From: an uncultured archaeon
Lineage (GTDB): Archaea > Altiarchaeota > Altiarchaeia > JAFGQM01
NCBI GenBank assembly: GCA_964613935.1
Contig: CAZTIX010000001.1
Span: 1 to 30,496, forward strand
Reading direction: 5' to 3'
DNA: 30,496 bases
In this document: piece after piece, positions 845 through 28,743 of the stretch
Numbering within the stretch: the first letter of the stretch is position 1
How the letters are laid out: the number at the start of each line of letters is the position of its first letter
Notes under the pieces: model-generated
What the model was told of the DNA's origin: nothing
The model's input: only the letters and a program-made list of their open reading frames with translations
Databases searched by the model: none
Program-made: the position numbers and the translations under genes

Positions 845-1489
845 ATGCACAACACATTTCTCTTCGACATGGACGGAACCCTTGTAGACACCTTCGACCT
901 AATTCACGAATCGTTCAACGCCGCCCTCGCCGAGAACAAGAAGGGGCCCATTACCAAGGAGGACTTCGACAAGAAGCTTTTCGGGAAGCCGGTGGATTCG
1001 ACGGTGATGAGGCTCCTGCGGATATCCGACGACAGGGAGTACGGGAAGGTCGTGAGGGACTTCCGCACCCATTGGCTGCGCAACCTGCAAAAGGTCGAGG
1101 TTTTTAAGAATGTTCCTCTAACTTTAGAGCGGCTCAGGAAGAGGGGCCACAAGCTCGGGGTGGTTAGCACGTCGCCCCGCGGGGTGATATCCGAGACCCT
1201 TCGCCAGACGGGGATATACGACTACTTCGATGTCCTCATAGGAGAGGAGGACGCAAAGAGGAAGAAGCCCCATCAGGAGCCTGTGGTCAACGCGCTCAAG
1301 CTTCTGGGAGCGAAGCCGGAGGAGACGGTCTTCGTGGGCGACACGATATACGACGTGCAGGCGGGCAAGAGAGCGGGTTGCCACACGGTATTCCTTCTCA
1401 ACCCCTACAACGCCGGAGTCCTGGAGGAATCCGAGCCGGACAGAGTCATAAAAAACGTTTCCGAATTGCTGGAAAATGGCGGAACCTGA
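845..1489 (+). CDS. HAD-superfamily hydrolase (PpaX pyrophosphatase / phosphoglycolate phosphatase-like), 214 aa
   Basis: Motif I FDMDGTLVDT, motif II GVVST, motif III KKPHQEP and motif IV FVGDTIYDVQAG. It overlaps the aglB start by 14 nt. Confidence 0.92.
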   Translation: MHNTFLFDMDGTLVDTFDLIHESFNAALAENKKGPITKEDFDKKLFGKPVDSTVMRLLRISDDREYGKVVRDFRTHWLRNLQKVEVFKNVPLTLERLRKRGHKLGVVSTSPRGVISETLRQTGIYDYFDVLIGEEDAKRKKPHQEPVVNALKLLGAKPEETVFVGDTIYDVQAGKRAGCHTVFLLNPYNAGVLEESEPDRVIKNVSELLENGGT

Positions 1490-4400
1490 GAAAAAGCGCA
1501 AGGCTGCGAAGGAGAGGCTGCTGGACCCGGACGCCCTGTCGTCCTCGCCGCAGACCATAGCCCTGATAGCCCTTCTGCTTTTTCTCCTGCTTTGGAGCCT
1601 GTTTCCCAACGGACCCACCACGGTCATGCTGGCCGCGGTGATAATCGGAGCCACCGGGATAAACCTGTACCTGACCACCTCCGACCTTATGGAGTCCGTG
1701 AAGAGCAAGTGGAGCATCCTGCCGGCCGCAATCGGACTGCTTCTGCTGGCGGTGCTTCTCCAGTCTCCCGGGCAGATGCTGCTGATAATACTCCTGGCGT
1801 CTTACGTGGCCCTCTCCATGGCGGTGGCCCTGGGCTTCATAAAAATCCAGACCGCAATAATAATGGGTCTCCTTCTGACCGCGGTGCTCTTCCGGGCATA
1901 TCCTGCGATGCCGGGCTCGGGCAGCTCGGCCGGCCACCTCATATCTATGGACGACCCCTATTTCCACTACAAGCAGACCGAGCGCCTCTACGAGCTGGGC
2001 GACGTGCCTGACAAGGACCTGACGATCTACCCGCCCGACGGCAGGGGCGCACCCCAGAAGTTCCCCTATTACTACAACACCTACCTCGCGCTCCTGACCA
2101 GCAACACGGTGCGCGACGTCATGCTCCTTTATCCCGTTCTTATAGCCGCGTTCGGCGCAATCGCGATGTTCCTCTTCCTCCGGGAGCTCACCGGCGACTG
2201 GAAGAGCGGCATGCTGGGCGGTTTCTTCTTCGCCACAATGCCGGCGGTTCTCAGCAAGTCCGTGGCAGGGGCAGTGGAGGAGGACCTGATGGGGATGGTC
2301 CTGGGCATATTCTCGCTTTATCTCCTGGCCAAGGCCTTCCGCACTTCGGGGCGGGAGAATCTCAAATATTCCCTCCTGTCCGGAGTCGCCTTCTTCATAA
2401 CCCTGATAAGCTGGAAGGGGGTCATATTCCTCTACGCGGTACCCTTCACCGCGCTCGCAATCTACGCCCTGGCGGGCATAATACTCAAACACGACATGTG
2501 GAACACCACCCGCTCCGCCCTTCTCGCCGGGATAATCCCGGTGGCGGGCAACCTGCTGTTCATAAACCCCGGCAGGCTCGACCTCACCCAGCTTGCGCCC
2601 TACGGGGCCCTGCTGTTCATGGGGCTTTGGGCCGAGGTCATAAGGGTCAGGTTATGGAAGGGGGAGGACCGCAAGACCGCTCCGGAGAAGAGATTCATAT
2701 TCCCGCTGGCGATTCTGGTGACTGCGGCCTTGCTGGCCATGGCCGCCTTTGCGGGAGTCGACAGGATAGTCGACATCCCTCAGAGGACCTACGAGAATTT
2801 CGCCGGCACCGGGGCGACCAACTATCTCGTGGACAAGACCATATCCGAGCAGGCAGCGTTCTCGCGGGGAGACCTCCTTCAGCGCCTCTCCATAGGCTAC
2901 GGCCGCTACAACATCGCCGAGGTCCTCACCCTCCTGATGGCCGCCCTCCTGCCCCTGGCAATCCTCTACCACTTTTTCAAGAAGGACAAGGACCGCCTGT
3001 TCGACCTCCTCAGAGCATATCTGATAGGGCTGGTCTTCTTCCTGGTGGCCATGCAGTTCGTTTGGCTGGAGTCGCGCCTGGTATTCTCCCAGTCTCTGGG
3101 CTTCCTGCTCCTGGGCGCAATGGTGGGGCTGATACTGCCGTCGAGCCGCGAGGAGCTGCCCACCTGGAAGGTGATTCCGCTTCTGATAATAATAGTGCTC
3201 ATCCCGTTCTCTACCTTTTACCCGTACAAGGGCCTGGACGCATGGGGGGACAGCCAGAGGGTCTCCGGGGTGCACCCCGCATGGTTCCTGGGGGTCGAGT
3301 GGCTCGACGAGAACATAGAGCCCGGATACTACACCGGCAACGAATACATAAACGGCGATTTCGTCCTCACCTGGTGGGACTACGGCCACTTCATAACCGC
3401 GTTGTCCGACTCCACGGTCATCGCCGACCCGCTACAGGCAAACGAGGAGTACATAATGCGAACAGCCAGGTTCTTCTACAACACCACCTCGGAGAAAGAG
3501 GCGATTGGGTGGCTCATGGAGCAGCCGTGGAACCCCAGGGACGAGACGGGCGAGTACAAGGTCAGGTACATAATCTTGGACGACACCCTCATAAACAAGG
3601 CGTCGGCCCTGGCCTTCCTCGGCACCAACCACTACGAGTATCCCAACGGTTACACGGCGGTCGACGGAGTCTGCGAGGTGGGGCAGGTCTGCCAGAACGT
3701 GGAGAACGGGCTGGAGGCGAGGAGGGTGGACGGCGACTACGTCTGCGATCGGGGCGAGGTTTGCGTGAGGGACCAGAGGGCGAGGACCGAGAAGAGGAGG
3801 TGCTGCGAGCCCGACCCCGCCCAGTGCTGCAACATGTCGCTGAGCTACAAGGTAATAAACCAGAAGAACGGCTCCGCCAGGCTGATGAGGGGGCCGGGAA
3901 CGCCCGTCTACGGCAGGTACACTCTGGAGACGGGGGGCGCGGCCTGCAGGCCGGAGTACGTCACATCCACCGAGCCGGTCTTCGTGGTTGAAGGGGGCGA
4001 GAGGAGGACGGTCACCCGGCGCTTCCTGTACACCGGCTTCAGCGGACTGCCCTACGCCGACGGGGGCCAATATCCCGCCTTCCTCATCATGACCTACGAG
4101 GACGGCACCCAGAGCCTCAAGTTCATAAGCCGCGACTGCTCCACCAAGGACGCCGAAGAGGTCCTGGCCGGGGGCGCCGACCTGCTGAAGAATCTCGGCT
4201 ACGGAAGGAGCATAGGAGATGGCATAAGAGCGCCGCAGATATTCGTCCACGCCCCGAGCAGATGGATGGACAGCATGTTCACGGAGCTCTATCTGAAGGA
4301 CGCCGCGAACTTGCAGCATTTCGAGATAATCGAGGACGCCTTCACTCAGGAGACTTCCGACGGGAAAGCCAACGTGTACCCGGCGGTCAAAATTTACAGG

Positions 4401-5021
4401 ATAACCTACCCCGACAAGATTCCGGAAGCTCCCGGCGGGGAGGAAGAGGCCGTCTCGGAGGAGCAGGAGCCCCAGGAGCAAGAGCCGCCGGCCAGCACAG
4501 TCGACGATACCGGCGAATCCGGAGAGGGCAGCGGCGAGGAGAGCATCCCGAACATGACCTTCGACCGCTATGACCCGGAGCTGCGCGAGGAATACGGCCT
4601 GACGCACTTCCCGGCCATCGTCTGGAACTGCGAGTTCAAGAAGCCCGGCAAGATGTCCAACACGACCTTCGAAGAAGAGGCCCTCTACAAGCTGGCCTGC
4701 ATAATGAACGACGCCGAGCCCCAGGAGCTGTGCCTGTCCCATGAGATATTCTACGATGAGAATGCCGGCAAGGTGAGCACCACCGACCAGGACATAGACG
4801 ACATCCTCAATGGCATAGCCAGGATAGAGAACTCCACAGCCTGCGGCCCGGAGGGCAGCGTCACAACGGTCCAGGTCTTCTACCCGCAGACATGCGAGTC
4901 CTGCGCGGAGCAAAAGCCCCTGCTGGACAAGCTAGAGCAGGATTTCGGCGAGCATCTGGACATATCCTACTACTGCGTAGGCGGCGAGGATTATTGCGTT
5001 CCCCGCCTCGGGGGAGCCTAA
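1476..5021 (+). CDS. aglB: Oligosaccharyltransferase AglB/STT3 with an N-terminal TM extension, a Cys-rich insert and a C-terminal thioredoxin-like appendage, 1181 aa
   Basis: Many TM segments, EL1 motif SMDDPYFH, VEEDLMG, EL5 TISE (TIXE motif), WWDYG at about 3372-3386, ADP, a DK-type helix DDTLINK and the terminal VKIY strand. Confidence 0.96.
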   Translation: MAEPEKKRKAAKERLLDPDALSSSPQTIALIALLLFLLLWSLFPNGPTTVMLAAVIIGATGINLYLTTSDLMESVKSKWSILPAAIGLLLLAVLLQSPGQMLLIILLASYVALSMAVALGFIKIQTAIIMGLLLTAVLFRAYPAMPGSGSSAGHLISMDDPYFHYKQTERLYELGDVPDKDLTIYPPDGRGAPQKFPYYYNTYLALLTSNTVRDVMLLYPVLIAAFGAIAMFLFLRELTGDWKSGMLGGFFFATMPAVLSKSVAGAVEEDLMGMVLGIFSLYLLAKAFRTSGRENLKYSLLSGVAFFITLISWKGVIFLYAVPFTALAIYALAGIILKHDMWNTTRSALLAGIIPVAGNLLFINPGRLDLTQLAPYGALLFMGLWAEVIRVRLWKGEDRKTAPEKRFIFPLAILVTAALLAMAAFAGVDRIVDIPQRTYENFAGTGATNYLVDKTISEQAAFSRGDLLQRLSIGYGRYNIAEVLTLLMAALLPLAILYHFFKKDKDRLFDLLRAYLIGLVFFLVAMQFVWLESRLVFSQSLGFLLLGAMVGLILPSSREELPTWKVIPLLIIIVLIPFSTFYPYKGLDAWGDSQRVSGVHPAWFLGVEWLDENIEPGYYTGNEYINGDFVLTWWDYGHFITALSDSTVIADPLQANEEYIMRTARFFYNTTSEKEAIGWLMEQPWNPRDETGEYKVRYIILDDTLINKASALAFLGTNHYEYPNGYTAVDGVCEVGQVCQNVENGLEARRVDGDYVCDRGEVCVRDQRARTEKRRCCEPDPAQCCNMSLSYKVINQKNGSARLMRGPGTPVYGRYTLETGGAACRPEYVTSTEPVFVVEGGERRTVTRRFLYTGFSGLPYADGGQYPAFLIMTYEDGTQSLKFISRDCSTKDAEEVLAGGADLLKNLGYGRSIGDGIRAPQIFVHAPSRWMDSMFTELYLKDAANLQHFEIIEDAFTQETSDGKANVYPAVKIYRITYPDKIPEAPGGEEEAVSEEQEPQEQEPPASTVDDTGESGEGSGEESIPNMTFDRYDPELREEYGLTHFPAIVWNCEFKKPGKMSNTTFEEEALYKLACIMNDAEPQELCLSHEIFYDENAGKVSTTDQDIDDILNGIARIENSTACGPEGSVTTVQVFYPQTCESCAEQKPLLDKLEQDFGEHLDISYYCVGGEDYCVPRLGGA

Positions 5022-5057: not shown

Positions 5058-6041
5058 ATGCTTCTCATACTCGCAGTTTCCCTGACGGCCTTTCTGGTGA
5101 CGGTCGCGACGGTCCCCGTCCTCATAAGGAAGTTCGCCGATGCGGGCATAACCGGCAAGGATGTCCACAAACCGGGCGAGCCGGAGGTGCCCGAGATGGG
5201 AGGCCTGTCGGTCGTGGCCGGCTTCGCTTCCGGCGTCCTGCTGGCGGTGGCCGCGACAACGCTCTTCGCCAGCCACCTGTTCAACGGCGGAGCGGGATTC
5301 GATTTGACCGGCCTGACCCAGCTATTCGCCGCCCTGAGCACCATACTGATAATAACGATTGTCGGCATATTCGACGACCTGGTCAAGATGCGGCAGAGCG
5401 TCAAGGCCGTGCTGCCCGTCTTCGCCTCGCTGCCCCTGGTGGCAATAGCGGCCGGGCACCCCTACATAACTCTCCCCCTGCTTGGAAGGGCCTACCTGCC
5501 GATAATCTACCCCCTGATACTCATACCCCTGGCGGTCGCGGTAGTCTCGAACCTCACCAACATGCTGGCGGGATTCAACGGCCTCGAGAGCGGCATGGGG
5601 CTGATGGCCTGCATATCCCTGGGAACTGTCGCGGCGTTCCGGGGGAGAGCCGACGCGGCGATACTCCTCCTGTCGATGTCGGGCGCCCTGCTGGCATTCG
5701 CGCTGTTCAACAAATTTCCGGCGCGCATACTCCCTGGAGATGTGGGCACACTCAGCATAGGGGCGTGCGTGGCGTCGTCCCTCATCATAGGCAACTTCGA
5801 GACGGCCGGTCTTCTGGTGATGTCGCCCTACATCCTGGATTTCCTCATAAAGGCCAGAAACGGATTCCCCAAGGAGATTGACCTAACCTCGCTGAAGGGG
5901 GGAAAGCTGACCGCTAAGAAGGCAGTGGGGCTTCCCAGCCTGATAATGAGGGCCACCGGCGGCATAGCGGAGACCCGGCTGGTGACCCTCCTGGTGGGCG
6001 CGGAGGCGGCCCTGGGAATACTGGCGGTGCTGATATGGTAG
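5058..6041 (+). CDS. aglH: UDP-GlcNAc:polyprenyl-phosphate GlcNAc-1-phosphate transferase (AglH/DPAGT1-like, MraY/PNPT family), 327 aa
   Basis: Polytopic membrane protein with GKDVHK, PEMGGL, GIFDD, NLTNMLAGFNGLE and PGDVG. The NMLAGFNGLE motif is of the GPT/DPAGT1 type. Confidence 0.9.
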   Translation: MLLILAVSLTAFLVTVATVPVLIRKFADAGITGKDVHKPGEPEVPEMGGLSVVAGFASGVLLAVAATTLFASHLFNGGAGFDLTGLTQLFAALSTILIITIVGIFDDLVKMRQSVKAVLPVFASLPLVAIAAGHPYITLPLLGRAYLPIIYPLILIPLAVAVVSNLTNMLAGFNGLESGMGLMACISLGTVAAFRGRADAAILLLSMSGALLAFALFNKFPARILPGDVGTLSIGACVASSLIIGNFETAGLLVMSPYILDFLIKARNGFPKEIDLTSLKGGKLTAKKAVGLPSLIMRATGGIAETRLVTLLVGAEAALGILAVLIW

Positions 6042-12672: not shown

Positions 12673-12682
12673 TAAAATCCCG
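12673..12682 (-). promoter_or_regulatory. Putative BRE/TATA element (CGGGATTTTA) for the minus-strand epimerase
   Basis: Identical to 790-799. On the minus strand it continues as TTTTATTTAA, starting 38 nt upstream of the ATG at 12639. Confidence 0.45.
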
Positions 12683-12700
12683 CTAAAGATATCTGGCAGG

Positions 12701-16466: not shown

Positions 16467-17258
16467 ATGGACCTCAAAAAATCGCTCAGGCACGCCATGT
16501 TGGCTCTAATGCACGCCACGGGTATGCATCGCCTCTCTCGGAGCGACAGGAAAGGACTACTAGTCCTGGCCTTCCACAAGGTCCCCGACAGGGACGCTTT
16601 CGAGCGGAAGATGCTGATACTGAAGGAGCTCTGCGACATTGCGAGCGTTGGGGATTTCCTGGAGGGGAAGCTCGACCCGGAGCGCCTGAGCGCCGCCGTG
16701 ACCTTCGACGACGGCTTCGCCAGCGTGGCCGAGAACGCCCTTCCCGTTTTGAAGAAGCACTCGATGCCCGCCGTAATATTCCTCACCTCTGGTTTTCTGG
16801 ACTCGAGGGACAAGGGCCGCTTCTGCAGGGAGAATCTCGGGGTGCGGCCGGCCGAAAGCATGACGTGGGAACAGGCAAGGACGGTGAGCGAGGATTTTGA
16901 ATTGGGCGGCCACGGCCGGGGCCATGTGGATTTAGCTTCACTCTCTCCGGCGGACGCCTTGAAAGAGATTGCCGAGGACAGAGAGCGAATAAAGAAGAAG
17001 ACCGGCAAGAAGCCCCGCTATTTCGCCTACCCGCTCGGGGGTGCGAAAAACATAAGTGAGACGGCCAGAAAAGCGGCCGAGAGGGCAGGATATGAGGCCG
17101 CCTTCACCATACTCCCCGGAGTCAACCAGAAGGGCACCGACCGCTTCCTGCTGCGCCGCATATCGGTCGACCCCGGGATGTCCGACACCGCCTTCAAGTC
17201 CGCCGTCCTCGGCAACTACCGAAGGCTGAAAGCGGCCAAGGACGCTCTTGCAAGATGA
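16467..17258 (+). CDS. Polysaccharide deacetylase (CE4/NodB-like), 263 aa
   Basis: LAFHKV, VTFDDG, IFL, MTW, GGHGRGH (metal His pair), FAYPLG and LRRI. Confidence 0.88.
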   Translation: MDLKKSLRHAMLALMHATGMHRLSRSDRKGLLVLAFHKVPDRDAFERKMLILKELCDIASVGDFLEGKLDPERLSAAVTFDDGFASVAENALPVLKKHSMPAVIFLTSGFLDSRDKGRFCRENLGVRPAESMTWEQARTVSEDFELGGHGRGHVDLASLSPADALKEIAEDRERIKKKTGKKPRYFAYPLGGAKNISETARKAAERAGYEAAFTILPGVNQKGTDRFLLRRISVDPGMSDTAFKSAVLGNYRRLKAAKDALAR

Positions 17259-18595
17259 AGCCCCGACCCAACATCCTCTGGATAGTCATGGACGCGGCCA
17301 GGGCGGACCACCTCTCCTGCATGGGCCATTCCAGGAAAACCACGCCCAACGTCGACGCCTTGGCCGAGGAGGGCCTGCTCTTCGAGAACGCCTTCTCCAC
17401 CTCCGACTGGACTCCACCGAGCCACGCCTCCATGCTCACCGGCAAGCTGCCCTGCCGCCACGGCGTCTACGACAAGACGCGCTTCGACCAAATAAGAGAC
17501 AAGACCGTCGGCGAGCGCCTGCCTCCCGAGTACGAGAGCCTGTTCATCGACTCGATGCCACATCTCAGGGGCATCGGAGCCGACCGGGGCTTCAAGAAGA
17601 GGGTGTCCACGACCCTTGACGCGTCTCCCGGACAGCCCCTCTACTGGCAATCGCTCATGAGGGAAGTCCTGGGATTGGACAGTTGGGAGACCTTCTACAA
17701 AGCGGAGACCATAAAATCGTTCGCAGGCGGCGCGCTATCCAGGAAAAAGCCGTTCTTCGTGTTCGCGAACTTCGATGATGCCCACTTCCCCTACGACCCT
17801 CCAAGGAGGTTCGAGAGATTCACAGCCCCGGGCATGGATGGCGATGCGATGAGTAAACTGGCCGGCCGCAAAAGCCTTCTGCGAAATGTAGCTGAGAAGG
17901 TGACCGGCAGGCGAAAATCCGGCCTCCGGCAGACGCTCAGTCGAAAGAGCAAAGATCTCACATCAAAGGAAAAAGAGATTCTAAAGGCCCTCTATGACAG
18001 CGAGCTGCTTTATCTGGACAATGCGATCGGCAAGCTTGTCAATTTCTTGAAATCCAGAGGAATCTACGACAGCACGCTAATCATAATAACCTCGGACCAC
18101 GGAGAGCTCTTCGGCGAGCACGGCAGGGTAATGCACGGCCGGGGGAAGAGCCACAGCCTCTACTCCGCGGTTACGCGCGTGCCCTTGGTTATGAGAGGGC
18201 CGGGAGTCCCACGCAAGAGGGTCGCGGCTATGGTCTCTCTGGCCGACCTCGCCCCGACCGTCTGCTCGCTCCTGGGAATCGGATGCGGGAAGAGGCTTGA
18301 CGGAGTCCCGCTGGTCCCCCCTCGCCGCGAGTATCATGAGCATGTCGTCTCCGAGGCGGAGGGCGTGAAGAGCATAAGGACGAAGACCCGCCACCTCATC
18401 CGGTCGGAGGAGGGGGTTGAGCTCTACGACGTCCCGAAGGACCCCGAAGAGAGGAAAGACATATCGAAGACCGAGAAGAGGACTGCGAAGTCGCTTCTCG
18501 CCCACCTCTCGAAAAAAACCAAGCTCGGCCCCCGCCAGTCGCTGAGAAGCAAGATAACCCGCCTGAAGAAGTCGGGTCGCCCGGGCGGCTCCTGA
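17255..18595 (+). CDS. Sulfatase-like hydrolase/transferase (AP superfamily) lacking the formylglycine motif, 446 aa
   Basis: PNILWIVMDAARADH, TPNVD, WTPPSHASMLTG (Thr in place of C/SxPxR), DAHFPY, LYDSELLYLD, TSDHGE, VPLVM and ELYD. Confidence 0.9.
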   Translation: MKPRPNILWIVMDAARADHLSCMGHSRKTTPNVDALAEEGLLFENAFSTSDWTPPSHASMLTGKLPCRHGVYDKTRFDQIRDKTVGERLPPEYESLFIDSMPHLRGIGADRGFKKRVSTTLDASPGQPLYWQSLMREVLGLDSWETFYKAETIKSFAGGALSRKKPFFVFANFDDAHFPYDPPRRFERFTAPGMDGDAMSKLAGRKSLLRNVAEKVTGRRKSGLRQTLSRKSKDLTSKEKEILKALYDSELLYLDNAIGKLVNFLKSRGIYDSTLIIITSDHGELFGEHGRVMHGRGKSHSLYSAVTRVPLVMRGPGVPRKRVAAMVSLADLAPTVCSLLGIGCGKRLDGVPLVPPRREYHEHVVSEAEGVKSIRTKTRHLIRSEEGVELYDVPKDPEERKDISKTEKRTAKSLLAHLSKKTKLGPRQSLRSKITRLKKSGRPGGS

Positions 18596-18835: not shown

Positions 18836-18841
18836 TTGGCC

Positions 18842-19777
18842 ATGCCCAGTGAAGTCCCTTACTTAGTCGAAGGCGCTGAGAGGAAGTTAGCCGGAGAGGA
18901 CTGGGACGTTCTCATAATCCTAGATGCCTGCAGGTACGACTTCTTCAAACGCCTCTATTCAGAACACATAGGCGCAGAGCTCGGAAGGGCCGTCTCTCCA
19001 GCCACGTGCACCATGGAGTGGCTCAGCAAGGTTTTTCCCGGCCAGTACAAAGACACGGTTTACATATCCGCCAATCCCTACATAAACTCCAAGAAGGCCA
19101 GCAGAGACCGTCGCGGACACGTATATGACGGAAAGAAGCACTTCTTCAAGGTCATCGACTCCTGGCTGACCGGGTGGGACGATGCCATAAAGTCAGTGCC
19201 CCCGGAGAGGGTCACCGCCGCCTTCAGGAAGGCCCGTTTGAAATATCCCAAAAAGCGGATTGTCCTCCACTACATCCAGCCCCATTTCCCCTACATAGGC
19301 GAGTCCCATAGGCGCTATCTCGCAGGAGTCTCAAAAGAATCCATCCAACATCATTCCCTGCCTCCGAAAACATCGGAGAGGAGGAATACATCTAAAAAGG
19401 ACTTGCTTGCACCACTCAAGAAGCGCGCAATCAGCCTCATATTCCGATTCTTCGGCACAGCCGGCGTCTGGAGGACAGTGACCTTCCTCCACCCGAACCG
19501 CCGCGTCTCGCAGCAAGTCAAGATATACCTGAGCGAGGGCTGGGAGGGAATCAGAAAGGCTTACGAGGAGAACCTCAGAATCGTCCTGAAAGAGGCGTTC
19601 CGGGTTGCGAGCAGGAACGACCTCAACATCCTGATAACCTCCGACCACGGCGAGCTTTTGGGCGAGCACGGGTTGTTCGGGCATCGAGTTAACTCGCGAA
19701 AGCGAGAGAACACGGAGGTTCCCTGGCTTGTTATGAGAAAAGGCCCTCATGAAGAAAGCAGCAGGGCTGGCGATTAA
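18842..19777 (+). CDS. AP-superfamily (sulfatase-like) protein of the type found in archaeal glycosylation clusters
   Basis: LIILDACRYD, SPATCTMEW, SANP, HYIQPHFPY, ITSDHGELLGEHGLFGH and VPW. The start is placed at ATG 18842 (the track uses TTG 18836). Confidence 0.85.
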   Translation: MPSEVPYLVEGAERKLAGEDWDVLIILDACRYDFFKRLYSEHIGAELGRAVSPATCTMEWLSKVFPGQYKDTVYISANPYINSKKASRDRRGHVYDGKKHFFKVIDSWLTGWDDAIKSVPPERVTAAFRKARLKYPKKRIVLHYIQPHFPYIGESHRRYLAGVSKESIQHHSLPPKTSERRNTSKKDLLAPLKKRAISLIFRFFGTAGVWRTVTFLHPNRRVSQQVKIYLSEGWEGIRKAYEENLRIVLKEAFRVASRNDLNILITSDHGELLGEHGLFGHRVNSRKRENTEVPWLVMRKGPHEESSRAGD

Positions 19778-19794: not shown

Positions 19795-22230
19795 TCACGA
19801 GAGGGCTTCAAACACTTCGCGGTTGCTTATTTTTTTAACCCCGGATTCTATCTTCTGCGATTCATCCTCAAAGTTCTTGACAAGCGAATCGACCCGCCTG
19901 CGCAGGTCTGCTTTCCTGAAAGTCCCCTCCCCCTTTATCAAATAGTGCTCTTGCCCAAATCGCCCGAGGAGTTCCCCGTACTTTTCAGCCCAGCTGATGC
20001 TCAGCGCAGGCACTCCCTTGTTGTATGCGTGCACGATGCCGTGATATCTTGAGCTTACTATGAAATCCATTTGCCCCAAAATGAATTCCAAATCAATTGC
20101 TTCAATCTCCTGGGGAAAGTATTTTACCCCCGCGTCATCCTGATAAGCATGGGCCAGTTTTTCACAGAGCCACTTGTCCATTTCAGAGTATCTCAGAATC
20201 ATCACATTTTTTCCCAATCCCCGGACCCGATCTATTATCTGACGATATGCCTCAAGCAGGCTAGCCTCGCTCTTCTTGGACAGAACCCTGCTGTTCGGCA
20301 CCAGCGCCACAGACCCCTTCGCAACCCTTGCCTTCCCCTCCTCGGACGGCGATTTGTAGATGTTCCGCAGCTCGTATTTGCGCCTTCCCAAAACCAAGTC
20401 CGGTTTTTTCTCTACGTTTTTCCTTGTGAAAAACGCTAGGTCTTTCCGTCCTTGCTCCTCCCTCACGAATATTTTCCTAGGATATCTCAAATAGAGGAGC
20501 ATCAGGGGGTAAAGCAGCACTTTGTTAAGAATTCCATATTCAAAAGGCCCTATAGACTGCGGCAGGATGTAATAAGGCACGGAATATTTCTTAGCTAGCA
20601 TAATGTTCAACATGTATTTCAGGGAACCCCCGATGCCCGTCTGGGACGACAGGGCGAAGCCGCTTATGTCGACTATGAATCTCGCTCTCTTGACAGTCTC
20701 CTCGATTCTCTTCAATCCTGCCGGCCCTGTTTGACCTCCCAAAAGCCTAATCTGCGAATCAAAACTCCAAGGGACTGCTTCAAACGCGTATGCCCCCTTG
20801 TTCTTCCTCTTTGCAGCCCTGCTTGAGAACACATAAATCTTCGACTTCGGAAAGCGACGCTTCAGCTCGTCCACAGCAGTGAAAAGCATCGATTGAGACC
20901 CTTTGTTGGAGGGTTGAGCCCCCAGGATTACAATGTTCTCCCCCCCTTTTTGCCCCCTGCCTCTTTTCAATCCGTCCAAAAGTATTCTCAAGAAAAGAAT
21001 GCACAACTTTGCCATAATCTCAAAGGCCTTCTTTGCCTTCCTGCGAATGTCGGAAAGAAATAGCGACCTTGCAATCTTGCGATAGCGCCTCCCCCTTCCC
21101 ATCGAGATTTTGTTCCTGCGCTCCGACAGCTTCTTTTTCGCTTGTTTGACCCCTTCCGGGGCCGGTCGGCCGCTGATTTCGGCCTCCAAAATCCTCAGGC
21201 ATTCCCAGTTGAACCTCTTCTTTTTCATGCCCTGGGATTCCTGGATATCCCCTATGGAGCATTCCTCTGTCTCAAAGCAACTTTTGTGCTTTTGAAAGTA
21301 GCGCCTCCCCTTTTTGCTCCTTATGATGACGCTGGAGTCTCCGTTTCGGGAGGACTTCAGCGGAACATAGCAGTCGCCGAGGGATATGTCGGCTGAAGCG
21401 TTCAGCTTGTCCAGGCAGAACAGGCACCTTTCTAGCTGGAAGTAGTTCTTTAGCCGCATGCGCTCATTTCGCTCCACTATGAGCTCTCTCCCCGAATCAA
21501 ACACCAGCCTTACGTCTCCAGGCCACCCATTTTTCTTGTAGCGGTAGTCAAAAGACACGAGGCGTTCGTCATCCCGGCCGTATTTCTTCCTAAAGAAATC
21601 CACAAGGTTGAAATTCAGGGTTTTGTCACAGAAGAGCCCCAGGAAAAGGACTTTTTTGTCAGGAAGCCCCCCCCGCTCCATATATTTTTTGATTCCCGCT
21701 ATCTGGCAGGGAGTGCCGACTATCACACAATTCGGAGTTTCTGATTCCTTCATGTACTCTATTATCTCACTCATCGACGCCGGCAAATATTTGGATTTGG
21801 CAGCACTTCTCACTTTTGGGGGATCCCTCACCTCTTTTAATCTGGCAGGCCCCTCCTCAGAAGCGTCAAAGTCCAGAAGGAAGGCCCGTTCGAAATCCCC
21901 GCTTTCCAAAAGCCTCTCAACTAGCTTGCTGGCAATCCCGCCGCTGGTCGAAGCCATCCGACCCTCCAATTCCTTATCATGAGCTATATAACAGCCCATA
22001 TGATTTCCCGCCAGTAGGCTCTCATCAAAACTCTCGGGAACACAATCGACGTTCCATCCAGGGCACAGATTCAGGCAGAGACCGCAGTTGGTGCAGGCCT
22101 CCTCATCAACGCGCGGAAGGAACTGCCCGCCTTTAAACTCCATCGAAACTGCGCCGGCAGGACAGACGGCAGAGCACATGCCGCAGGATGTGCACAAATT
22201 GCGCTCCCTCGTCTTAAGAACATTGTCCAT
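19795..22230 (-). CDS. Fusion of a 2x[4Fe-4S] ferredoxin, an F420-hydrogenase beta subunit (FrhB/FdhB)-like domain and a polysaccharide pyruvyltransferase-like domain, 811 aa
   Basis: CTSCGMCSAVCP, CTNCGLCLNLCP, STSGG, SKY, VGTPCQI, GLFC, GWPG, CLFCLD and DISLGD, followed from about aa 432 by NKG, DISGFA, PQSIGPF, VRE, PDLV and SSRYHGIVHAYNKGVP. Confidence 0.85.
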   Translation of the reverse strand: MDNVLKTRERNLCTSCGMCSAVCPAGAVSMEFKGGQFLPRVDEEACTNCGLCLNLCPGWNVDCVPESFDESLLAGNHMGCYIAHDKELEGRMASTSGGIASKLVERLLESGDFERAFLLDFDASEEGPARLKEVRDPPKVRSAAKSKYLPASMSEIIEYMKESETPNCVIVGTPCQIAGIKKYMERGGLPDKKVLFLGLFCDKTLNFNLVDFFRKKYGRDDERLVSFDYRYKKNGWPGDVRLVFDSGRELIVERNERMRLKNYFQLERCLFCLDKLNASADISLGDCYVPLKSSRNGDSSVIIRSKKGRRYFQKHKSCFETEECSIGDIQESQGMKKKRFNWECLRILEAEISGRPAPEGVKQAKKKLSERRNKISMGRGRRYRKIARSLFLSDIRRKAKKAFEIMAKLCILFLRILLDGLKRGRGQKGGENIVILGAQPSNKGSQSMLFTAVDELKRRFPKSKIYVFSSRAAKRKNKGAYAFEAVPWSFDSQIRLLGGQTGPAGLKRIEETVKRARFIVDISGFALSSQTGIGGSLKYMLNIMLAKKYSVPYYILPQSIGPFEYGILNKVLLYPLMLLYLRYPRKIFVREEQGRKDLAFFTRKNVEKKPDLVLGRRKYELRNIYKSPSEEGKARVAKGSVALVPNSRVLSKKSEASLLEAYRQIIDRVRGLGKNVMILRYSEMDKWLCEKLAHAYQDDAGVKYFPQEIEAIDLEFILGQMDFIVSSRYHGIVHAYNKGVPALSISWAEKYGELLGRFGQEHYLIKGEGTFRKADLRRRVDSLVKNFEDESQKIESGVKKISNREVFEALS

Positions 22231-22419
22231 TTATTTCCGACTTTTAATATCTCTGATGCCGAACATCTCCGATGCTTTAACAGAGCCGAATCTTGCGCTT
22301 GCAAGCGTCTCTTGCCCCTCAAAAAGGCAAGTGCAGTATATTCAATAGCCAATGTAAAAAACAGGGCGCTTCGGCCCCAAACCCAAAAGCGCTTTTTATG
22401 CGCCCAATCAAAGGCGGCC

Positions 22420-22427
22420 TTTTTATA
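22420..22427 (+). promoter_or_regulatory. Putative TATA box (TTTTTATA) for the RHH-cysD-cysN operon
   Basis: Good archaeal TATA match in the 252-nt divergent intergenic region. A second TTTTTAT lies at 22393-22399. Confidence 0.45.
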
Positions 22428-22443
22428 GGCTCTATCCGAATAT

Positions 22444-22472
22444 ACACTCCAATAACACTCCAAATAGAGTGT
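22444..22472. repeat. ACACTC triple repeat (two direct, one inverted), candidate operator
   Basis: ACACTC at 22444-22449 and 22455-22460 (11-nt period; ACACTCCAA is repeated) and GAGTGT at 22467-22472, ending 10 nt before the RHH ATG. Confidence 0.6.
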
Positions 22473-22482
22473 CACGGCGAGA

Positions 22483-22698
22483 ATGACTGAAAAAGTCACC
22501 CTGAAAATTCCAAAGAACCTCTACAGGAAACTCAAGAGGCGGATAAGCGGCACTGGATTCAGCTCCGTCACGGAATTCGTTGTTTTTGTGATGAGGTCGG
22601 TTGCCTCCGCCCAGGCGGTTGAAGGCAGAGAGGACCTGACCGAAGAGGAAATAAGTCTGGTGCGAGAGAGGCTCAGACGCCTCGGCTACCTTGATTAA
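22483..22698 (+). CDS. Ribbon-helix-helix (CopG-family) protein with a C-terminal ERLRRLGYLD tail, 71 aa
   Basis: Strand KVTLKIP, helix KNLYRKLKRRI, turn GTGFSS and helix VTEFVVFVMR, then an acidic EEE linker and the LxxLGY tail. Confidence 0.85.
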   Translation: MTEKVTLKIPKNLYRKLKRRISGTGFSSVTEFVVFVMRSVASAQAVEGREDLTEEEISLVRERLRRLGYLD

Positions 22699-22742
22699 GA
22701 TTGACCCAAATGGAACCTGAGCTAGGGAAGCACTGCGTGGGC

Positions 22743-23540
22743 ATGAGCCATCTGGATGAGCTGGAGAGCAAGAGCGTCTTCATAATCCGGGAGGCCTACA
22801 AGCAGTTCAAGAACATAGCGATGCTGTGGTCCATCGGAAAGGATTCCAGCTGCCTCCTCTGGCTAGTCAGAAAGGCCTTCTACGGCCGCATACCCTTTCC
22901 TGTCATACACATAGACACCGGCTACCAGATACCCAAGATGATAGAATGGCGCGACAAGTACGCCAAGAAGTGGAACCTCAACCTGATAATCTCCCAGAAC
23001 AAGGAGGCCCTGGAGCGAGGCATGAACAACAAGAGCAAGCTGGCCTGCTGCACGGCTCTCAAGACCGACGCCCTGAAGCAGACGTTGGACGAGCACAAAT
23101 TTAGAGCTCTGCTGCTGGGAATCCGAAGGGACGAGCACGGTGTTAGGGCGAAGGAGAGGGTCTTCTCCCCCCGCAATCAGGACTTCAAGTGGGACTACAA
23201 GAACCAACCCCCCGAGCTCTGGGACCAGTACAAGGCCAAGGCCGAGGAGAAGGAGCACATCAGGGTCCACCCCCTCCTGCACTGGACCGAGGTCGACGTC
23301 TGGGAGTACATAAAGCGTGAGAGCATACCCCTCATACCCCTTTACTTCGCCAAGGACGGGAAGCGCTACCGGAGCCTGGGATGCGAGTGTTGCTGCGCCC
23401 CGGTGGACTCGGACGCAGACACAATCGACAAGGTCATAGGCGAGCTGAAGATGACTCGCCAGGGCGAGAGGGACGGCCGGGCCCAGGACAAGGAGGAGGC
23501 GAACGCAATGCAGAAGCTGAGGGCACTGGGCTACATGTGA
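22743..23540 (+). CDS. cysD: Sulfate adenylyltransferase subunit 2 (ATP sulfurylase small subunit)
   Basis: LDELESKSVFIIREA, PP-loop WSIGKDS, HIDTG, GIRRDE...RAKER, RVHPLLHWTE, RYRSLGC, ERDGRAQD and terminal LRALGYM. The start may instead be ATG 22710. Confidence 0.95.
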   Translation: MSHLDELESKSVFIIREAYKQFKNIAMLWSIGKDSSCLLWLVRKAFYGRIPFPVIHIDTGYQIPKMIEWRDKYAKKWNLNLIISQNKEALERGMNNKSKLACCTALKTDALKQTLDEHKFRALLLGIRRDEHGVRAKERVFSPRNQDFKWDYKNQPPELWDQYKAKAEEKEHIRVHPLLHWTEVDVWEYIKRESIPLIPLYFAKDGKRYRSLGCECCCAPVDSDADTIDKVIGELKMTRQGERDGRAQDKEEANAMQKLRALGYM

Positions 23541-23550
23541 CAAGCTAAAA

Positions 23551-24783
23551 ATGGAGGCAAGCGAGGAGTATCTTAGGCTGGTAATCGTAGGGCACGTGGA
23601 CCACGGGAAGTCGACGCTGATAGGCCGGCTTCTCTACGATACCGGCTCGCTTCCAGAGGGCAAGATAGAGGAGATAAAGAGCATCTGCAACGCCCTGGGC
23701 AAGGAGCTGGAGTTCGGCTATGTCATGGACAACCTAGAGGAGGAAAGAGACCAGAGCGTGACCATCGACACCGCCCAGATATTCTTCAAGACTGACAAGC
23801 GCCACTATGTGATAATCGACGCCCCCGGCCACGTGGAGTTTGTCAAGAACATGGTGACGGGCGCGTCCCAGGCCGAGGCGGCCGTCCTCATAGTTGACGC
23901 CGAGGAGGGGGTTCAGGAGCAGACCCGGCGCCATGCCTACATCCTCGGCATGCTCGGCCTGAAGCAGGTCGCGGTCGTGGTTAACAAGATGGACCTGGTC
24001 GGCTACTCCGAGGAGCGGTTCGACGAGGTTTCAAAGGACCTCAGGCAATTTCTGGGGAAAATAGGCATAGACCCCACCTACGTAATCCCCATATCCGCTC
24101 GCGAGGGCGATTTCGTGGCGGGGAAGACCGGCAGCATGCCCTGGCACGACGGCCCCACTGTCTTGGAGGCGCTCGATTCCTTCAAGCCTCGCGAGCCCCG
24201 CATGAGCAAGCCGCTGAGGTTCTCGGCGCAGGACGTCTACAAGCGGGACAAGCGGATAATCGTGGGCCGCGTGGAGAGCGGGACGCTCCGAAAGGGGGAG
24301 GAAGTCCTGGTGCTTCCTTCCGGAGAGAAGACCTCCGTCAGGAGCATCGAGGAGTGGCTCAAGGACGACGTCAGGGAGGCGGTGGCCGGCAAGGCCACGG
24401 GCCTCACTACCGAGGACAAGCTCTTCATAGACCGGGGCGACGTGCTGTGCGACCCCAAGAAACCGCCCACAGTGACCGACCGGTTTGAGGCGCAGCTTTT
24501 CTGGATGGACAAGGCCCCTCTGAAGAAGGGGGAGAGGATAATACTGAAATGCTCCACCCAGAAGGCCGTGTGCGAGGTCGAGGAGTTCAAGAGAGTGCTG
24601 GACTCCTCCACCCTGCGGGAGCTGGAGGGCAAAGAAGAGCTGGGCAACCGGGAGGTGGCCGATGCGGTGATAAAGACCGACAAGCCCATAGTCATCGAGG
24701 ATTTCAACAAGACGGAGGAGCTGGGCCGGTTCGTCCTGGAGCGGCTCAACACCTGCGCGGGGGGGATAATAACCGGAGCATGA
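23551..24783 (+). CDS. cysN: Sulfate adenylyltransferase subunit 1 (EF-Tu-like GTPase) without a fused APS-kinase domain, 410 aa
   Basis: GHVDHGKSTLIGRLLYDT, EERDQSVTID, DAPGH, MVTGASQA, QTRRH, NKMD, PISA and a terminal GRFVL...AGGII. It directly follows cysD. Confidence 0.95.
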   Translation: MEASEEYLRLVIVGHVDHGKSTLIGRLLYDTGSLPEGKIEEIKSICNALGKELEFGYVMDNLEEERDQSVTIDTAQIFFKTDKRHYVIIDAPGHVEFVKNMVTGASQAEAAVLIVDAEEGVQEQTRRHAYILGMLGLKQVAVVVNKMDLVGYSEERFDEVSKDLRQFLGKIGIDPTYVIPISAREGDFVAGKTGSMPWHDGPTVLEALDSFKPREPRMSKPLRFSAQDVYKRDKRIIVGRVESGTLRKGEEVLVLPSGEKTSVRSIEEWLKDDVREAVAGKATGLTTEDKLFIDRGDVLCDPKKPPTVTDRFEAQLFWMDKAPLKKGERIILKCSTQKAVCEVEEFKRVLDSSTLRELEGKEELGNREVADAVIKTDKPIVIEDFNKTEELGRFVLERLNTCAGGIITGA

Positions 24784-27369: not shown

Positions 27370-28743
27370 ATGGCGACTTTCCTGAGGAGGGCATCATCCG
27401 GGCTGGCTTACGTGTCGGGAGGCAATCTCCTGGGGGCAGTCATCTCGTTTCTGGTGACCGTAACGCTCGCTCAGGCCTTGGGAGTGAAGGACTACGGCCT
27501 GATGCTGCTGGCCCTGTCCATCCCCTCGGCCATGGTGGTTTTCACCGAGTGGGGCCTGAGTAGCCTGCTCTCTGCGGATATAGCCGCCTACCGGCCGAAA
27601 GGCGAGCTGTCCAAAATAAAGAAACTCCTCAAGCAGACCCTCTTCATCAAGGTGGCAATCTCCCTTTCGCTGATGGCTCTGCTCTTCCTGATAAGCGACA
27701 GCGTAATCCCTCAGTTCTACAGCGCGCGCGTTTCCAGCCTGGTGAAGATAGTGGCCCTGATGCTGCCCCTCAACGTGCTCGAGGAGCAGCTGAGGGTGAT
27801 ATTCATAGGGTTTTCCAAGTTCAATGGCATAGCTTGGATGCGTATCTTCCAGCCCATCTTCCGGCTCTCCCTGCTAATTTTGTTCCTCCAAATGGCCACA
27901 CTCGACCTCATCACCGCAACACTCCTCTACCCACTTTCCCTTCTATTGTCCTCCCTATTGGTAATTCCGCTCCTGATAGGCGTTTTTCGAAAGCTGCGGA
28001 GCGTCGCATCCTCGAAGGAAAACGTGCTTAAGGAGACCATAAAGGAGCACGGGAAATATGCGATTATGATAGTCCCCGTCAAGAAGGGCATAGACAACCT
28101 GCCCCTATGGCTAGCCGGCTTCTTACTGGGTGCCCCCGCCGCGGCTTTGTTCGGCCTGGCCAACAAGTTCTACGGATTCATATCCCTGGCGGTGAAATCC
28201 ATCGAGCAAGTCTTCCTGCCTCTGATGGCCGAGCAGACTGTGAAGGGCATACAGCGCCTGGTCCTCCTCTTTAAGAAGGGACTCAAGTTCGGCTTTTTGC
28301 TCTCCCTGGTCGCGGTGGCGGCGTCCATCCCGCTTCTACCCGTTGTGATAGAAGGCCTCTCCCTCGACAAGTACGTGGCCGCAATACCCATAGCCCAAGT
28401 CCTAATGCTGAACATGATAAGGTGGTTCTCTTTCATGACGGTCAGGCCTATACTCGTGTCGACAAAGAACCAGAAATACCTGTTCCTGTTTTATCTCTCG
28501 AAGCTTGCGATACTTTCCTCTTTTGGCTATGTCTTCCTAATGCTCATGGGCCACCCGATAGGGCTTGCCTGGGCCACCATCCTTACAGGAATACTCCTGA
28601 CCGTAATACATTATTGGATACTTTTGAAAATAGACAAAGCATTCGCCGTGAACATTCGCCGCGACCTTCTGACGATAGACGAAAAGGACAAGAGCATATA
28701 CCGGCGGTCCATGAAGCAAATCAGGGCGCGGCTAGGATTCTAG
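27370..28743 (+). CDS. Wzx/AglR-like oligosaccharide flippase (polysaccharide biosynthesis family), 457 aa
   Basis: About 12 hydrophobic segments, [11 protein letters not shown] near the N-terminus, and a mid-protein D...L...L...ALFGLA pattern typical of Wzx/MOP exporters. Confidence 0.85.

Follow-up and report, generated by a model that had tools for sequence, protein, structure and literature searches.

A gene in the window, the 30,496-nt stretch of DNA analysed here, encodes an FrhB-like Fe-S flavoprotein fused to a polysaccharide pyruvyltransferase (PvT). We propose, with a probability of roughly 0.6, that the fusion protein forms a lactyl ether by enolpyruvyl transfer from phosphoenolpyruvate (PEP) followed by flavin-dependent reduction of the C=C bond. 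The odds are about even that it is the single-polypeptide version of a widespread and so far uncharacterised lactyl-ether (glycolactilic acid) route independent of MurA and MurB, in which a PF04230 enzyme would transfer enolpyruvyl onto a lipid-linked glycan and an interchangeable reductase would follow. The reductase would be FrhB-like (fused in either order or encoded adjacently) or of the nitroreductase family, and possibly a radical-SAM protein. The coordinates of the fusion gene, its parts and neighbouring features are given in Table 1.

Table 1. Fusion gene, domain boundaries and surrounding features in the window
Feature	Position (nt)	Strand	Residues	Remarks
Fusion gene, FrhB-like Fe-S flavoprotein + polysaccharide pyruvyltransferase	19795..22230	(-)	811 aa	Complete ORF, ATG start
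2x[4Fe-4S] ferredoxin domain	22057..22206	(-)	9-58	Pfam above gathering score
FrhB_FdhB_N	21760..21990	(-)	81-157	Pfam 33.0 bits, cut-off 22
FrhB_FdhB_C	21262..21726	(-)	169-323	Pfam 88.8 bits, cut-off 23.3
Helical module	20968..21255	(-)	326-421	Between FrhB_C and linker
Basic flexible linker KRGRGQKGG	20941..20967	(-)	422-430	pLDDT about 65
PS_pyruv_trans half	19798..20940	(-)	431-811 (Pfam 442-747)	GT-B fold
Divergent intergenic region	22231..22700			470 bp, GC 48%; between fusion gene (-) and cysD (+)
AglB/STT3 archaeal oligosaccharyltransferase	1476..5021	(+)	1181 aa	
Glycos_transf_4 initiating (AglH-like) transferase	5058..6041	(+)		
CysD + CysN sulfate adenylyltransferase subunits	22701..24783	(+)		Divergent from fusion gene
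Polysacc_synt (Wzx-type) flippase	27370..28743	(+)		

The ORF listing of the window gave an 811-residue frame without interruption, and Pfam analysis agreed with the earlier note in finding a ferredoxin domain, FrhB N and C domains and a pyruvyltransferase-like domain within it. The note had placed the last of these from about nt 20937 down; the linker ends at nt 20941 and the transferase half starts at about nt 20940. Homologues align with the N-terminus of the fusion protein from residue 1-4, so the long start is correct. No database record was found for the exact 811-aa protein, and a 720-aa database copy (P0001), identical over query residues 92-811, represents a shorter start call. In three further runs of this microbial-mat study, at a depth of only about 3-4x, short Logan contigs showed 0 differences from the fusion gene, with the X3 pieces 20633-20987, 20959-21225 and 21226-21490 tiling the inter-domain region. 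The full-length AlphaFold model of the fusion protein had a pLDDT of 91.4 and a pTM of 0.85. The gene has a GC content of 50% compared with 60% in its neighbours, and thus looks horizontally acquired. This difference, the strand opposite to that of the neighbours and the low coverage in the source runs would also fit an assembly chimera or a broken gene, an artefact that the earlier note had listed as a possible refutation. Such an origin is ruled out, with a negligible residual chance, by the intact ORF, the independent contigs from three runs that tile the junction, the numerous full-length collinear homologues from unrelated assemblies and the confident single-protein model.

Both domains of the FrhB/FdhB family (PF04422 and PF04432) scored above threshold in the N-terminal half. 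The cofactor layout of the FrhB-type fold was taken from PMC10229431, according to which the F420 site is a positively charged cleft without residue markers. In the ferredoxin domain, which is placed like Fsr's N-terminal ferredoxin domain, C13/16/19/23 and C46/49/52/56 are invariant across 44 fusion proteins. The S96-G97-G98 motif of FrhB_FdhB_N is also invariant in this set, and its GG is matched in the alignment by that of 8rja_E and of Fsr, which would place it within the FAD-binding core. C175, C201, C269 and C272 of FrhB_FdhB_C align with cysteines of 8rja_E and Fsr, and presumably ligate a third [4Fe-4S] cluster beside the flavin. Overall, the 12 cluster cysteines and G97-G98 are invariant or nearly so across the 44 fusions. 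Structural comparison of the N half with 8rja_E, 8riu_B and FrhB (9r51_B) gave target-normalised TM-scores of 0.70-0.74.

The fusion protein fell below the NCBIfam equivalog cut-offs for FpoF (67.9 vs 475 bits) and frhB (34.9 vs 331.5 bits), and no hydrogenase, Fpo or sulfite-reductase genes were found within the window. A subunit of an F420-reducing hydrogenase or dehydrogenase was thus ruled out, in view of the missing partner modules and scores far under the equivalog cut-offs. To our knowledge, most lineages that carry the fusion or the gene pair are not known to make F420, and because of this spread the glycan substrate, and not F420, is the probable ligand of the flavin site.

Between the two halves, the helical module comprises helices at residues 326-332, 335-353, 362-379 and 383-421, the last being the most hydrophobic stretch of the fusion protein (FEIMAKLCILFLRILLDGL). 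Stand-alone FrhB-like relatives cover most or all of the module (to about residue 386-417), which is possibly a membrane-surface or docking element. A transmembrane linker was ruled out, as each half has to be in the cytoplasm and the stretch is moderately hydrophobic, to a degree that differs among homologues. The only clearly lower-confidence block between the halves in the AlphaFold model (residues 421-430, pLDDT 65) coincides with the linker KRGRGQKGG at residues 422-430, a stretch that the earlier note had already read from the sequence.

The C-terminal half matched PF04230 with 67.7 bits (cut-off 25.3) over profile positions 1-278 of 280. Invariant residues in this half are N442, G444, Q558, G561-P562, R590, D611, D685, R728, H730 and K750, of which R590, D611, R728 and H730 are invariant in both the 44 fusions and 31 PvT sequences. 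This Arg/Asp/Arg-x-His set matches the modelled PEP residues of Pvg1p (R217, D240, R337 and H339) by pattern and spacing only. An hhalign comparison with E. coli WcaK (97.3%, E 2.4e-11, 339 columns) showed that NKG, (Q/H)S-GPF, RE, D, R-x-H and K are common to both proteins. Since these motifs are also those of a ketal-forming enzyme, they give no sequence sign of a stop at the enol ether. The model of the C half alone (pLDDT 91.4, pTM 0.91) consists of two Rossmann-like lobes with a cleft, resembling GT-B, and Foldseek retrieved GT-B enzymes with query-normalised TM-scores of up to 0.60. The top 50 Foldseek matches were generic GT-B proteins and included no solved pyruvyltransferase; none was detected in sequence and profile searches of the PDB with the PvT half.

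A domain-architecture search, a check proposed in the earlier note, identified 79 same-order and 9 reverse-order fusions among the 150 best cluster representatives, one of which is a GT2-Fer4-FrhB-PvT triple fusion. Full-length collinear fusions of 790-855 aa with 31-42% identity account for dozens of the cluster representatives at 50% identity. A Rosetta-stone argument requires recurrence of this kind, here in either domain order and with GT2 as an extra domain, and the fusion can be read in this way, as the note had done. A genome scan with the single fusion protein as query gave no matches, while a 10-sequence alignment as query gave 61 genome loci in many archaeal and bacterial phyla. Hosts of the fusion or the gene pair belong to Bacteroidales, Clostridia, Patescibacteria, Omnitrophota, Paracoccus and Sinorhizobium, and annotation adds Klebsiella to this list; Diplocloster modestus and Paracoccus yeei are examples of cultured hosts. 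The note's statement that the two families are bacterial neighbours proved correct: overlapping FrhB-like/PvT genes lie on pYEE1 of Paracoccus yeei and pSMED01 of Sinorhizobium medicae, and several genome loci have split pairs. Fusions in both orders together with translationally overlapping pairs indicate tight coupling.

At three loci (L046, L050 and L051), a nitroreductase-family gene directly adjoins the gene of a close PvT homologue and there is no FrhB partner. In a crude tree, these PvTs are interleaved with the FrhB-partnered ones. Because a nitroreductase gene can replace FrhB beside PvT, the role of the partner looks like flavin-dependent reduction. The coupling is not universal, since four fairly close PvT homologues (L042, L048, L049 and L052) have no reductase within 10 kb, and two loci (L029 and L032) have a radical-SAM neighbour instead of a reductase.

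In a survey of 79 Klebsiella cps loci (1,515 CDS), with genes judged by published annotation and not by sequence, reductase genes were confined to K22/K37 (a nitroreductase) and K66 (a 'coenzyme F420 hydrogenase'). Each is listed next to a type-specific pyruvyltransferase (HG127 with WclZ in K22/K37, HG203 with WcqF in K66). The K22, K37 and K66 capsules are reported as not pyruvylated; K22/K37 carry 4-O-(1-carboxyethyl)-GlcA, and K66 is tabulated with beta-Glcp-O-lactyl, as read by column count in a tab-delimited table. In Klebsiella, these three are the capsules for which O-lactyl sugars are listed without a pyruvate ketal. By a hypergeometric estimate, the chance that all 3 lactyl types fall among the 4 non-pyruvylated types with a PvT gene (of 46) comes to about 3e-4; counting K22 and K37 once raises it to about 3e-3. 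In Campylobacter, a proposed glucolactilic acid sugar tracks pgl operons that include a gene for a pyruvyl transferase, and a frameshift in a single gene, wfeP, distinguishes E. coli O124 (lactyl-Glc) from O164 (Glc). The correlations in Klebsiella point to a lactyl ether, not a ketal, as the product. The lactyl-ether prediction of the earlier note, which had named known lactylated polysaccharides as a point of comparison, thus gains support from the K22/K37/K66 match and from the nitroreductase replacement, all of it correlation.

Clustering of STT3, an initiating glycosyltransferase, six further glycosyltransferase genes of family 1 (Pfam Glycos_transf_1) and a flippase identifies the surroundings as an archaeal Agl (N-glycosylation) locus, probably from Thermoplasmatota. 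The locus also contains genes for UDP-glucose dehydrogenase, sulfate activation and a methyltransferase, which suggest uronic-acid, sulfate and methyl groups on the glycan. Judging from its position, the fusion enzyme would act on the AglB substrate. The intergenic region upstream of the fusion gene is presumed to be a promoter region. No tRNA or Rfam features were found in the window.

We infer the following product, acceptor, donor and direction of electron flow for the fusion enzyme. In the first step, based on family membership, the PS_pyruv_trans half would place enolpyruvyl from PEP on a sugar hydroxyl. Since the characterised relatives WcfO and CsaB require lipid-linked acceptors, this hydroxyl most probably belongs to a dolichyl-(pyro)phosphate-linked oligosaccharide on the cytoplasmic side of the membrane. 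In the second step, suggested by the fusion and the correlations, the FrhB-like half would reduce the enol-ether C=C before a second hydroxyl closes the ketal. Electrons would pass from the two ferredoxin-type clusters through the core [4Fe-4S] cluster to FAD, followed by hydride transfer to C3 of the enolpyruvyl group. The predicted product is an O-(1-carboxyethyl) lactyl ether, which would add a further anionic group to the AglB-dependent glycan.

An ordinary ketal-forming pyruvyltransferase, with the FrhB half doing a separate redox job (such as keto-sugar reduction) or acting in redox sensing, is an unlikely alternative that accommodates several of these observations. The PEP-site motifs are common to the PvT half and WcaK, related PvTs occur without any reductase nearby, and fusions of PvT domains to GT2 or GT8 glycosyltransferases exist as well, so that a fusion can simply reflect a shared pathway. 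It leaves unexplained, however, why unrelated flavoreductases, those of the nitroreductase family, take the same place beside PvT. The tight coupling evident from both fusion orders and the overlapping pairs also speaks against it, as do the Klebsiella types with PvT and reductase genes, which lack pyruvate ketals and have lactyl ethers.

The same transfer and reduction could alternatively take place on a nucleotide sugar, with F420H2 reducing the flavin in a ping-pong reaction and the Fe-S clusters being vestigial or structural. In an E. coli review, wfeP is assigned to 'synthesis of UDP-D-GlcpLA', consistent with such an acceptor, but WcfO and CsaB need lipid-linked ones, and a location at the membrane surface would suit the hydrophobic helix that precedes the linker. 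As for F420, the closest structures to the N half are F420-dependent modules (8rja_E, 8riu_B, Fsr and FrhB). Some non-methanogenic archaea, including Thermoplasma, contain F420, which also counts in favour. The near-complete invariance of the 12 cluster cysteines in the 44 fusions nevertheless argues for a working electron relay, and the bacterial distribution of the fusion or pair described above likewise counts against F420. We consider this variant improbable, and retain enolpyruvyl transfer to a lipid-linked glycan followed by reduction through the Fe-S clusters as the preferred reading.

Lactyl ethers are found on rumen and cyanobacterial polysaccharides. In Klebsiella, E. coli and Shigella, lactyl (1-carboxyethyl) ethers also occur on capsules and O-antigens, lactyl-bearing O-antigen clusters being those of E. 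coli O58, O69, O124, O146 and O150 and of S. dysenteriae types 3 and 5; Campylobacter N-glycans probably carry such ethers too. They have an influence on antigenicity and, probably, on the specificity of phages and depolymerases. A 2019 review of pyruvylation recognises enol (MurA, NikO) and ketal forms alone and says nothing of reductase partners. Our literature searches found no paper that connects FrhB-like proteins or nitroreductases to pyruvyltransferases and lactyl ethers, and no description of lactyl-ether enzymes outside the cell-wall MurA/MurB pathway. If the proposal is true, lactylated glycans would become predictable from genomes, 'pyruvyltransferase' genes in loci with pyruvate-free products would be explained, and FrhB-type proteins would acquire a new class of substrates beyond energy metabolism and chlorophyll synthesis. 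We know of no lactyl ether in any archaeal glycan, and the fusion protein would predict the first lactylated archaeal N-glycan. The fused form also offers a convenient single protein for biochemistry.

Among known systems, the C half belongs to the same PF04230 family as WcaK (E. coli), WcfO (B. fragilis), CsaB (P. alvei) and Pvg1p (S. pombe). Like these ketal-pyruvyltransferases, a group whose proven members also include GumL, ExoV and PssM, the fusion sits in a glycan locus and is expected to use PEP as donor. Unlike them, it is covalently joined to an Fe-S flavoprotein, a crude tree puts its C half into a large PvT clade distant from WcaK, and its predicted product is a reduced lactyl ether instead of the cyclic ketal of WcaK-type enzymes. 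The proposed chemistry resembles that of MurA/MurB, in which a PEP-dependent enolpyruvyl ether is reduced by a flavin-dependent enzyme to a lactyl ether. The folds are unrelated (GT-B and FrhB in the fusion), and no Pfam match of the fusion protein at E up to 0.1 was to a MurA or MurB family. The fusion also differs in its probable lipid-linked acceptor and in a putative Fe-S relay instead of NADPH. The Klebsiella K66 and K22/K37 loci likewise combine a PF04230-type gene with a flavoreductase gene in a glycan locus, and their capsules are O-lactylated, although they are split genes in bacterial Wzx/Wzy loci, likened by annotation only.

With regard to the redox half, FpoF, the F420H2-oxidase half of Fsr, 8rja_E (F420-reducing Fwd) and 8riu_B (CODH) have the same order of a 2x[4Fe-4S] ferredoxin domain followed by the FrhB core, and their cluster cysteines and GG motif align with those of the fusion protein. 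In contrast to FrhB, FpoF and Fsr, the fusion has no electron-exchanging catalytic partner (hydrogenase, sulfite reductase, Fwd or Fpo). BciB and HCAR are FrhB-fold Fe-S flavoproteins that, as proposed for the N half, reduce an organic substrate; they differ in having tetrapyrrole substrates and no transferase partner, and HCAR is a weaker structural match (target-normalised TM-score about 0.5). The analogy of the redox half with these ferredoxin-dependent enzymes is plausible, and BciB (8-vinyl reductase), which reduces a vinyl C=C, is the closest chemical precedent.

The ORF listing recovered the single uninterrupted fusion frame reported in the earlier note, with an ATG start, and its ferredoxin, FrhB N and C and pyruvyltransferase (PF04230, here PvT) domains each exceeded the Pfam gathering score. 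The position claimed for the linker and the start of the transferase also proved accurate. The protein scored below the NCBIfam cut-offs for FpoF (67.9 bits against 475), FrhB (34.9 against 331.5) and CsaB (47.9 against 213), and is thus a member of both superfamilies but of none of these named equivalogs. It is basic (144 K+R against 100 D+E), indicating that the host is not a salt-in halophile.

Positions of the fusion gene, its domains and other features of the window
Feature	Residues (aa)	Window position (nt)	Strand	Basis or remark
Fusion ORF	811 in total	19795-22230	-	ORF listing
Two 4Fe-4S motifs	9-58		-	Pfam
FrhB_FdhB_N	81-157		-	Pfam
FrhB_FdhB_C	169-323		-	Pfam
Linker KRGRGQKGG	422-430	20941-20967	-	Sequence
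PS_pyruv_trans	442-747		-	Pfam
Putative opposite-strand ORF		178-735		Overlaps the next, of similar length
Putative ORF	206 in total	204-824		Left edge of window
AglB/STT3 homologue	1181 in total	1476-5021		
Alkaline-phosphatase-superfamily protein		14980-16410		
Alkaline-phosphatase-superfamily protein		17255-18595		
Alkaline-phosphatase-superfamily protein		18836-19777		
Intergenic region, fusion gene to cysD		22231-22700		470 bp, 48% GC
CysD and CysN		22701-24783		
Alkaline-phosphatase-superfamily protein		24812-25534		
Methyltransferase		25537-26232		

The window derives from a microbial-mat metagenome, and the fusion is not an assembly artefact. Short contigs from separate assemblies of three other runs of the same mat study showed 0 differences to the fusion gene, and three such contigs tile the region between the two halves (20633-21490), at a depth of only ~3-4x. 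Stronger evidence came from HMMER: scanned exhaustively, 1.84 billion cluster representatives yielded 1,044 homologous proteins at E <= 1e-30, and the domain-architecture search that had been proposed as a check revealed many homologous fusions. The best 150 of the 1,044 comprise 79 same-order fusions (many collinear over 790-855 aa, with 31-42% identity), 9 reverse-order fusions with PvT first (representative P0056 being confirmed by Pfam), 26 FrhB-like-only and 36 PvT-only proteins. One of these 150 representatives, P0143 (977 aa), combines GT2, Fer4, FrhB_C and PvT, and three more (P0098, P0109 and P0103) join GT2 or GT8 to PvT, which suggests that the glycosyltransferase adding the acceptor sugar may work directly with the pyruvyltransferase. 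An AlphaFold2 model of the whole chain, built from a 44-sequence alignment, has a mean pLDDT of 91.4 and pTM of 0.85, with residues 421-430 as the sole clearly lower-confidence block between the halves.

Conservation was read from 44 aligned fusions. Invariant or nearly so are the ferredoxin-cluster cysteines (C13/16/19/23 and C46/49/52/56), the FrhB core (S96-G97-G98, C175, C201, C269 and C272) and, in the PvT half, N442, G444, Q558, G561-P562, R590, D611, D685, R728, H730 and K750. Aligned end to end, the N-terminal half shares its four core cysteines and GG motif with both the FrhB-type subunit 8rja_E and the F420H2-oxidase half of Fsr. Foldseek ranked 8rja_E, 8riu_B, Fsr and FrhB at the top, with target-normalised TM scores of 0.70-0.74 for 8rja_E, 8riu_B and FrhB 9r51_B, and ~0.5 for HCAR. 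The inter-half region consists of three long helices (335-353, 362-379 and 383-421), the protein's hydrophobicity being highest in the last; stand-alone FrhB-like relatives cover most or all of this stretch, up to residue ~386-417. The predicted C-terminal half adopts a GT-B enzyme fold by Foldseek, and sequence and profile searches detected no relative of it among solved structures. It aligns with WcaK of E. coli K-12 by hhalign (97.3%, 339 columns), sharing with this characterised ketal-pyruvyltransferase the NKG/NRG, (Q/H)S-GPF, RE, D, R-x-H and K motifs. The modelled PEP-contact residues of Pvg1p (R217, D240, R337 and H339) fit the same pattern (PMC6801904). From these folds and conserved cofactor- and PEP-type motifs, both halves look catalytically competent.

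The genome scan yielded 61 loci, whose arrangements were sorted with our own domain HMMs. At about 30, a single frame encodes FrhB followed by PvT; the hosts are Thermoplasmatota, Asgard archaea, Omnitrophota, Patescibacteria, Thermodesulfobacteriota, Actinomycetota, Bacteroidales and a Pseudomonadales MAG. This order is kept in Desulfoscipio (locus L025), with the halves in separate reading frames. At six loci (L027, L031, L035, L041, L053 and L054), from archaea (two Promethearchaeota), Spirochaetaceae, Planctomycetota and Eubacteriales, PvT comes before FrhB, fused or abutting. Other loci, such as those of Ruminococcus and Diplocloster modestus, hold separate nearby genes. The adjacency in bacteria mentioned in the earlier note was found in Paracoccus yeei pYEE1, where genes annotated 'polysaccharide pyruvyl transferase' and 'Coenzyme F420 hydrogenase/dehydrogenase beta subunit C-terminal domain' overlap by 4 nt, and in Sinorhizobium medicae pSMED01, where a FrhB_N/FrhB_C ORF comes after, and overlaps, one matching PF04230. 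Most lineages with the fusion or gene pair are not known to make F420, so that the module is unlikely to depend on F420 in general.

At some fusion loci a further FrhB-like gene, or a second pair in reverse order, lies within a few kb (L005 12787-13857, L013 16810-18888 and L024 869-1942), which suggests that such glycans may bear more than one such modification. In L013 the copy scoring best with the PvT model has FrhB first, and the second pair is reversed and fused in one frame. In the cultured isolate D. modestus ASD4241 (L043), two PvT genes in tandem and then a FrhB-like gene lie at 9986-13720, with a second FrhB-like gene ~4 kb downstream (17338-18369); the module could be tested in this cultivable strain.

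By our HMMs, several PvT homologues among the 61 loci lack a FrhB-like gene within 10 kb. A nitroreductase-family protein is the direct neighbour of PvT in Marinilabiliaceae (L046), Saccharicrinis (L051) and Enterococcus (L050). A radical-SAM protein of ~320-337 aa, for which NCBIfam gave no name, directly precedes PvT in Thermodesulfobacteriota and Omnitrophota MAGs (L029 8843-9856 and L032 8934-9899), the best-scoring PvT-only loci (E ~1e-150 with our PvT HMM). In L042, L048 and L052, L049 being left out, the direct neighbours of PvT are glycan-assembly genes only. A crude neighbour-joining tree of PvT domains, built without bootstrap, grouped all these PvTs in a single large clade, well apart from WcaK and with partner types interleaved. 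The replacement of one flavoreductase family by an unrelated one at this position points to reduction as the role of the partner.

Known lactylated polysaccharides, suggested earlier as a point of comparison, correlate with this pairing. Across 79 surveyed Klebsiella capsule loci, four non-pyruvylated types (K8, K22, K37 and K66) have pyruvyltransferase genes, and the 1,515 CDS include only three reductase genes, two 'nitroreductase' and one 'coenzyme F420 hydrogenase' (PMC4616057). In its listing, nitroreductase group HG127 adjoins pyruvyl transferase WclZ, both K22/K37-specific, and coenzyme_F420_hydrogenase group HG203 adjoins pyruvyltransferase WcqF, both K66-specific (PMC4616057 Table S2). 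Parolis et al. 1988, by its title as cited in PMC3857182, places 4-O-[(S)-1-carboxyethyl]-glucuronic acid in K22 and K37; a 2025 preprint describes it in both, with related K25 lacking the lactyl group. In the composition table of PMC6856556, with columns assigned by tab counting, K37 falls under alpha-Glcp and beta-GlcpA-Olac, K66 under beta-Glcp-Olac, and K8 is listed with pyruvylated galactose. Together, PvT plus a reductase occurs in the three lactyl-bearing types and in no other of the surveyed types, the reductase being FrhB-type in one by published annotation. Two further cases hint in the same direction: in Campylobacter a proposed glucolactilic acid sugar tracks pgl operons holding a pyruvyl transferase gene, and E. 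coli O124 (lactyl-Glc) and O164 (Glc) differ by a frameshift in one gene, wfeP.

The window is an archaeal-type glycan-assembly locus, encoding AglB/STT3, a Glycos_transf_4 initiating enzyme, six family-1 glycosyltransferases (Pfam Glycos_transf_1), two epimerases, a further epimerase/dehydratase-family protein, UDP-glucose dehydrogenase, a nucleotidyltransferase, a polysaccharide deacetylase, a methyltransferase, a Wzx-type flippase, CysD and CysN. The AglB/STT3 protein is longer than usual and falls below the cut-off of the archaeosortase-A-associated STT3 subfamily model (110 bits against 450). Neither Pfam nor NCBIfam matched the putative left-edge ORF. The four alkaline-phosphatase-superfamily proteins around CysD/CysN were assigned by Pfam sulfatase or type I phosphodiesterase matches, one only weak, and no APS kinase or recognisable sulfotransferase was seen in the annotated ORFs of the window; these proteins might act not as hydrolases but as sulfate or phospho-group transferases of the glycan pathway.

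The fusion gene is the sole minus-strand gene in its neighbourhood, and its composition (GC 50.4%, GC3 61.7%, against ~60% and ~78% for its neighbours) suggests a recent, horizontally acquired insertion into the Agl locus. Its nearest full-length relatives (39-42% identity) come from Thermoplasmatota MAGs, Saliniplasma and Natronoplasma among them. Beside its own fusion gene, the unclassified archaeal MAG L011 carries sugar-nucleotide genes 64-70% identical to those of the window. From such relatives, the host was judged probably to belong to Thermoplasmatota. Immediately downstream of the L011 fusion gene (12366 onward) lies a methyltransferase 52% identical to that of the window, then a flippase; across the two loci the methyltransferase may be functionally associated with the fusion enzyme.

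The fusion is already in public sequence data, its halves routinely annotated. We found no statement of its function in the searchable literature, outside which lie subscription papers on glycolactilic-acid O-antigens, nor any discussion of the FrhB-like/PvT pairing in searchable papers mentioning both pyruvyl and F420. The main pyruvylation review distinguishes two forms only, enol (MurA, NikO) and ketal (PMC6801904). The fusion couples an orthodox-looking PF04230 transferase to a reductase, and its predicted product is new. The acceptor is probably a dolichol-linked glycan, given that WcfO depends on a lipid-phosphate carrier and that lipid-bound intermediates are described as receiving pyruvate in Rhizobium and Xanthomonas (PMC6801904). 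The PvT half would attach an enolpyruvyl unit, taken from PEP, to a hydroxyl group on a sugar, and the FrhB-like half would reduce the enol ether to a lactyl ether. As the protein has no other redox module, electrons would be expected to run inward from an external low-potential donor through the two ferredoxin clusters, the core cluster and FAD to the substrate. Where FrhB and Fsr bind F420 in a positively charged cleft, the equivalent cleft would instead hold the anionic glycan substrate. We infer product, acceptor, donor and stereochemistry alike. The hypothesis is specific and testable with one protein and, if true, would account for a class of sugar modifications known for a long time. 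BciB, a FrhB homologue, reduces a vinyl group with ferredoxin and is the nearest chemical precedent for the proposed reduction; for the proposed transfer plus reduction, the nearest functional precedent is MurA/MurB.
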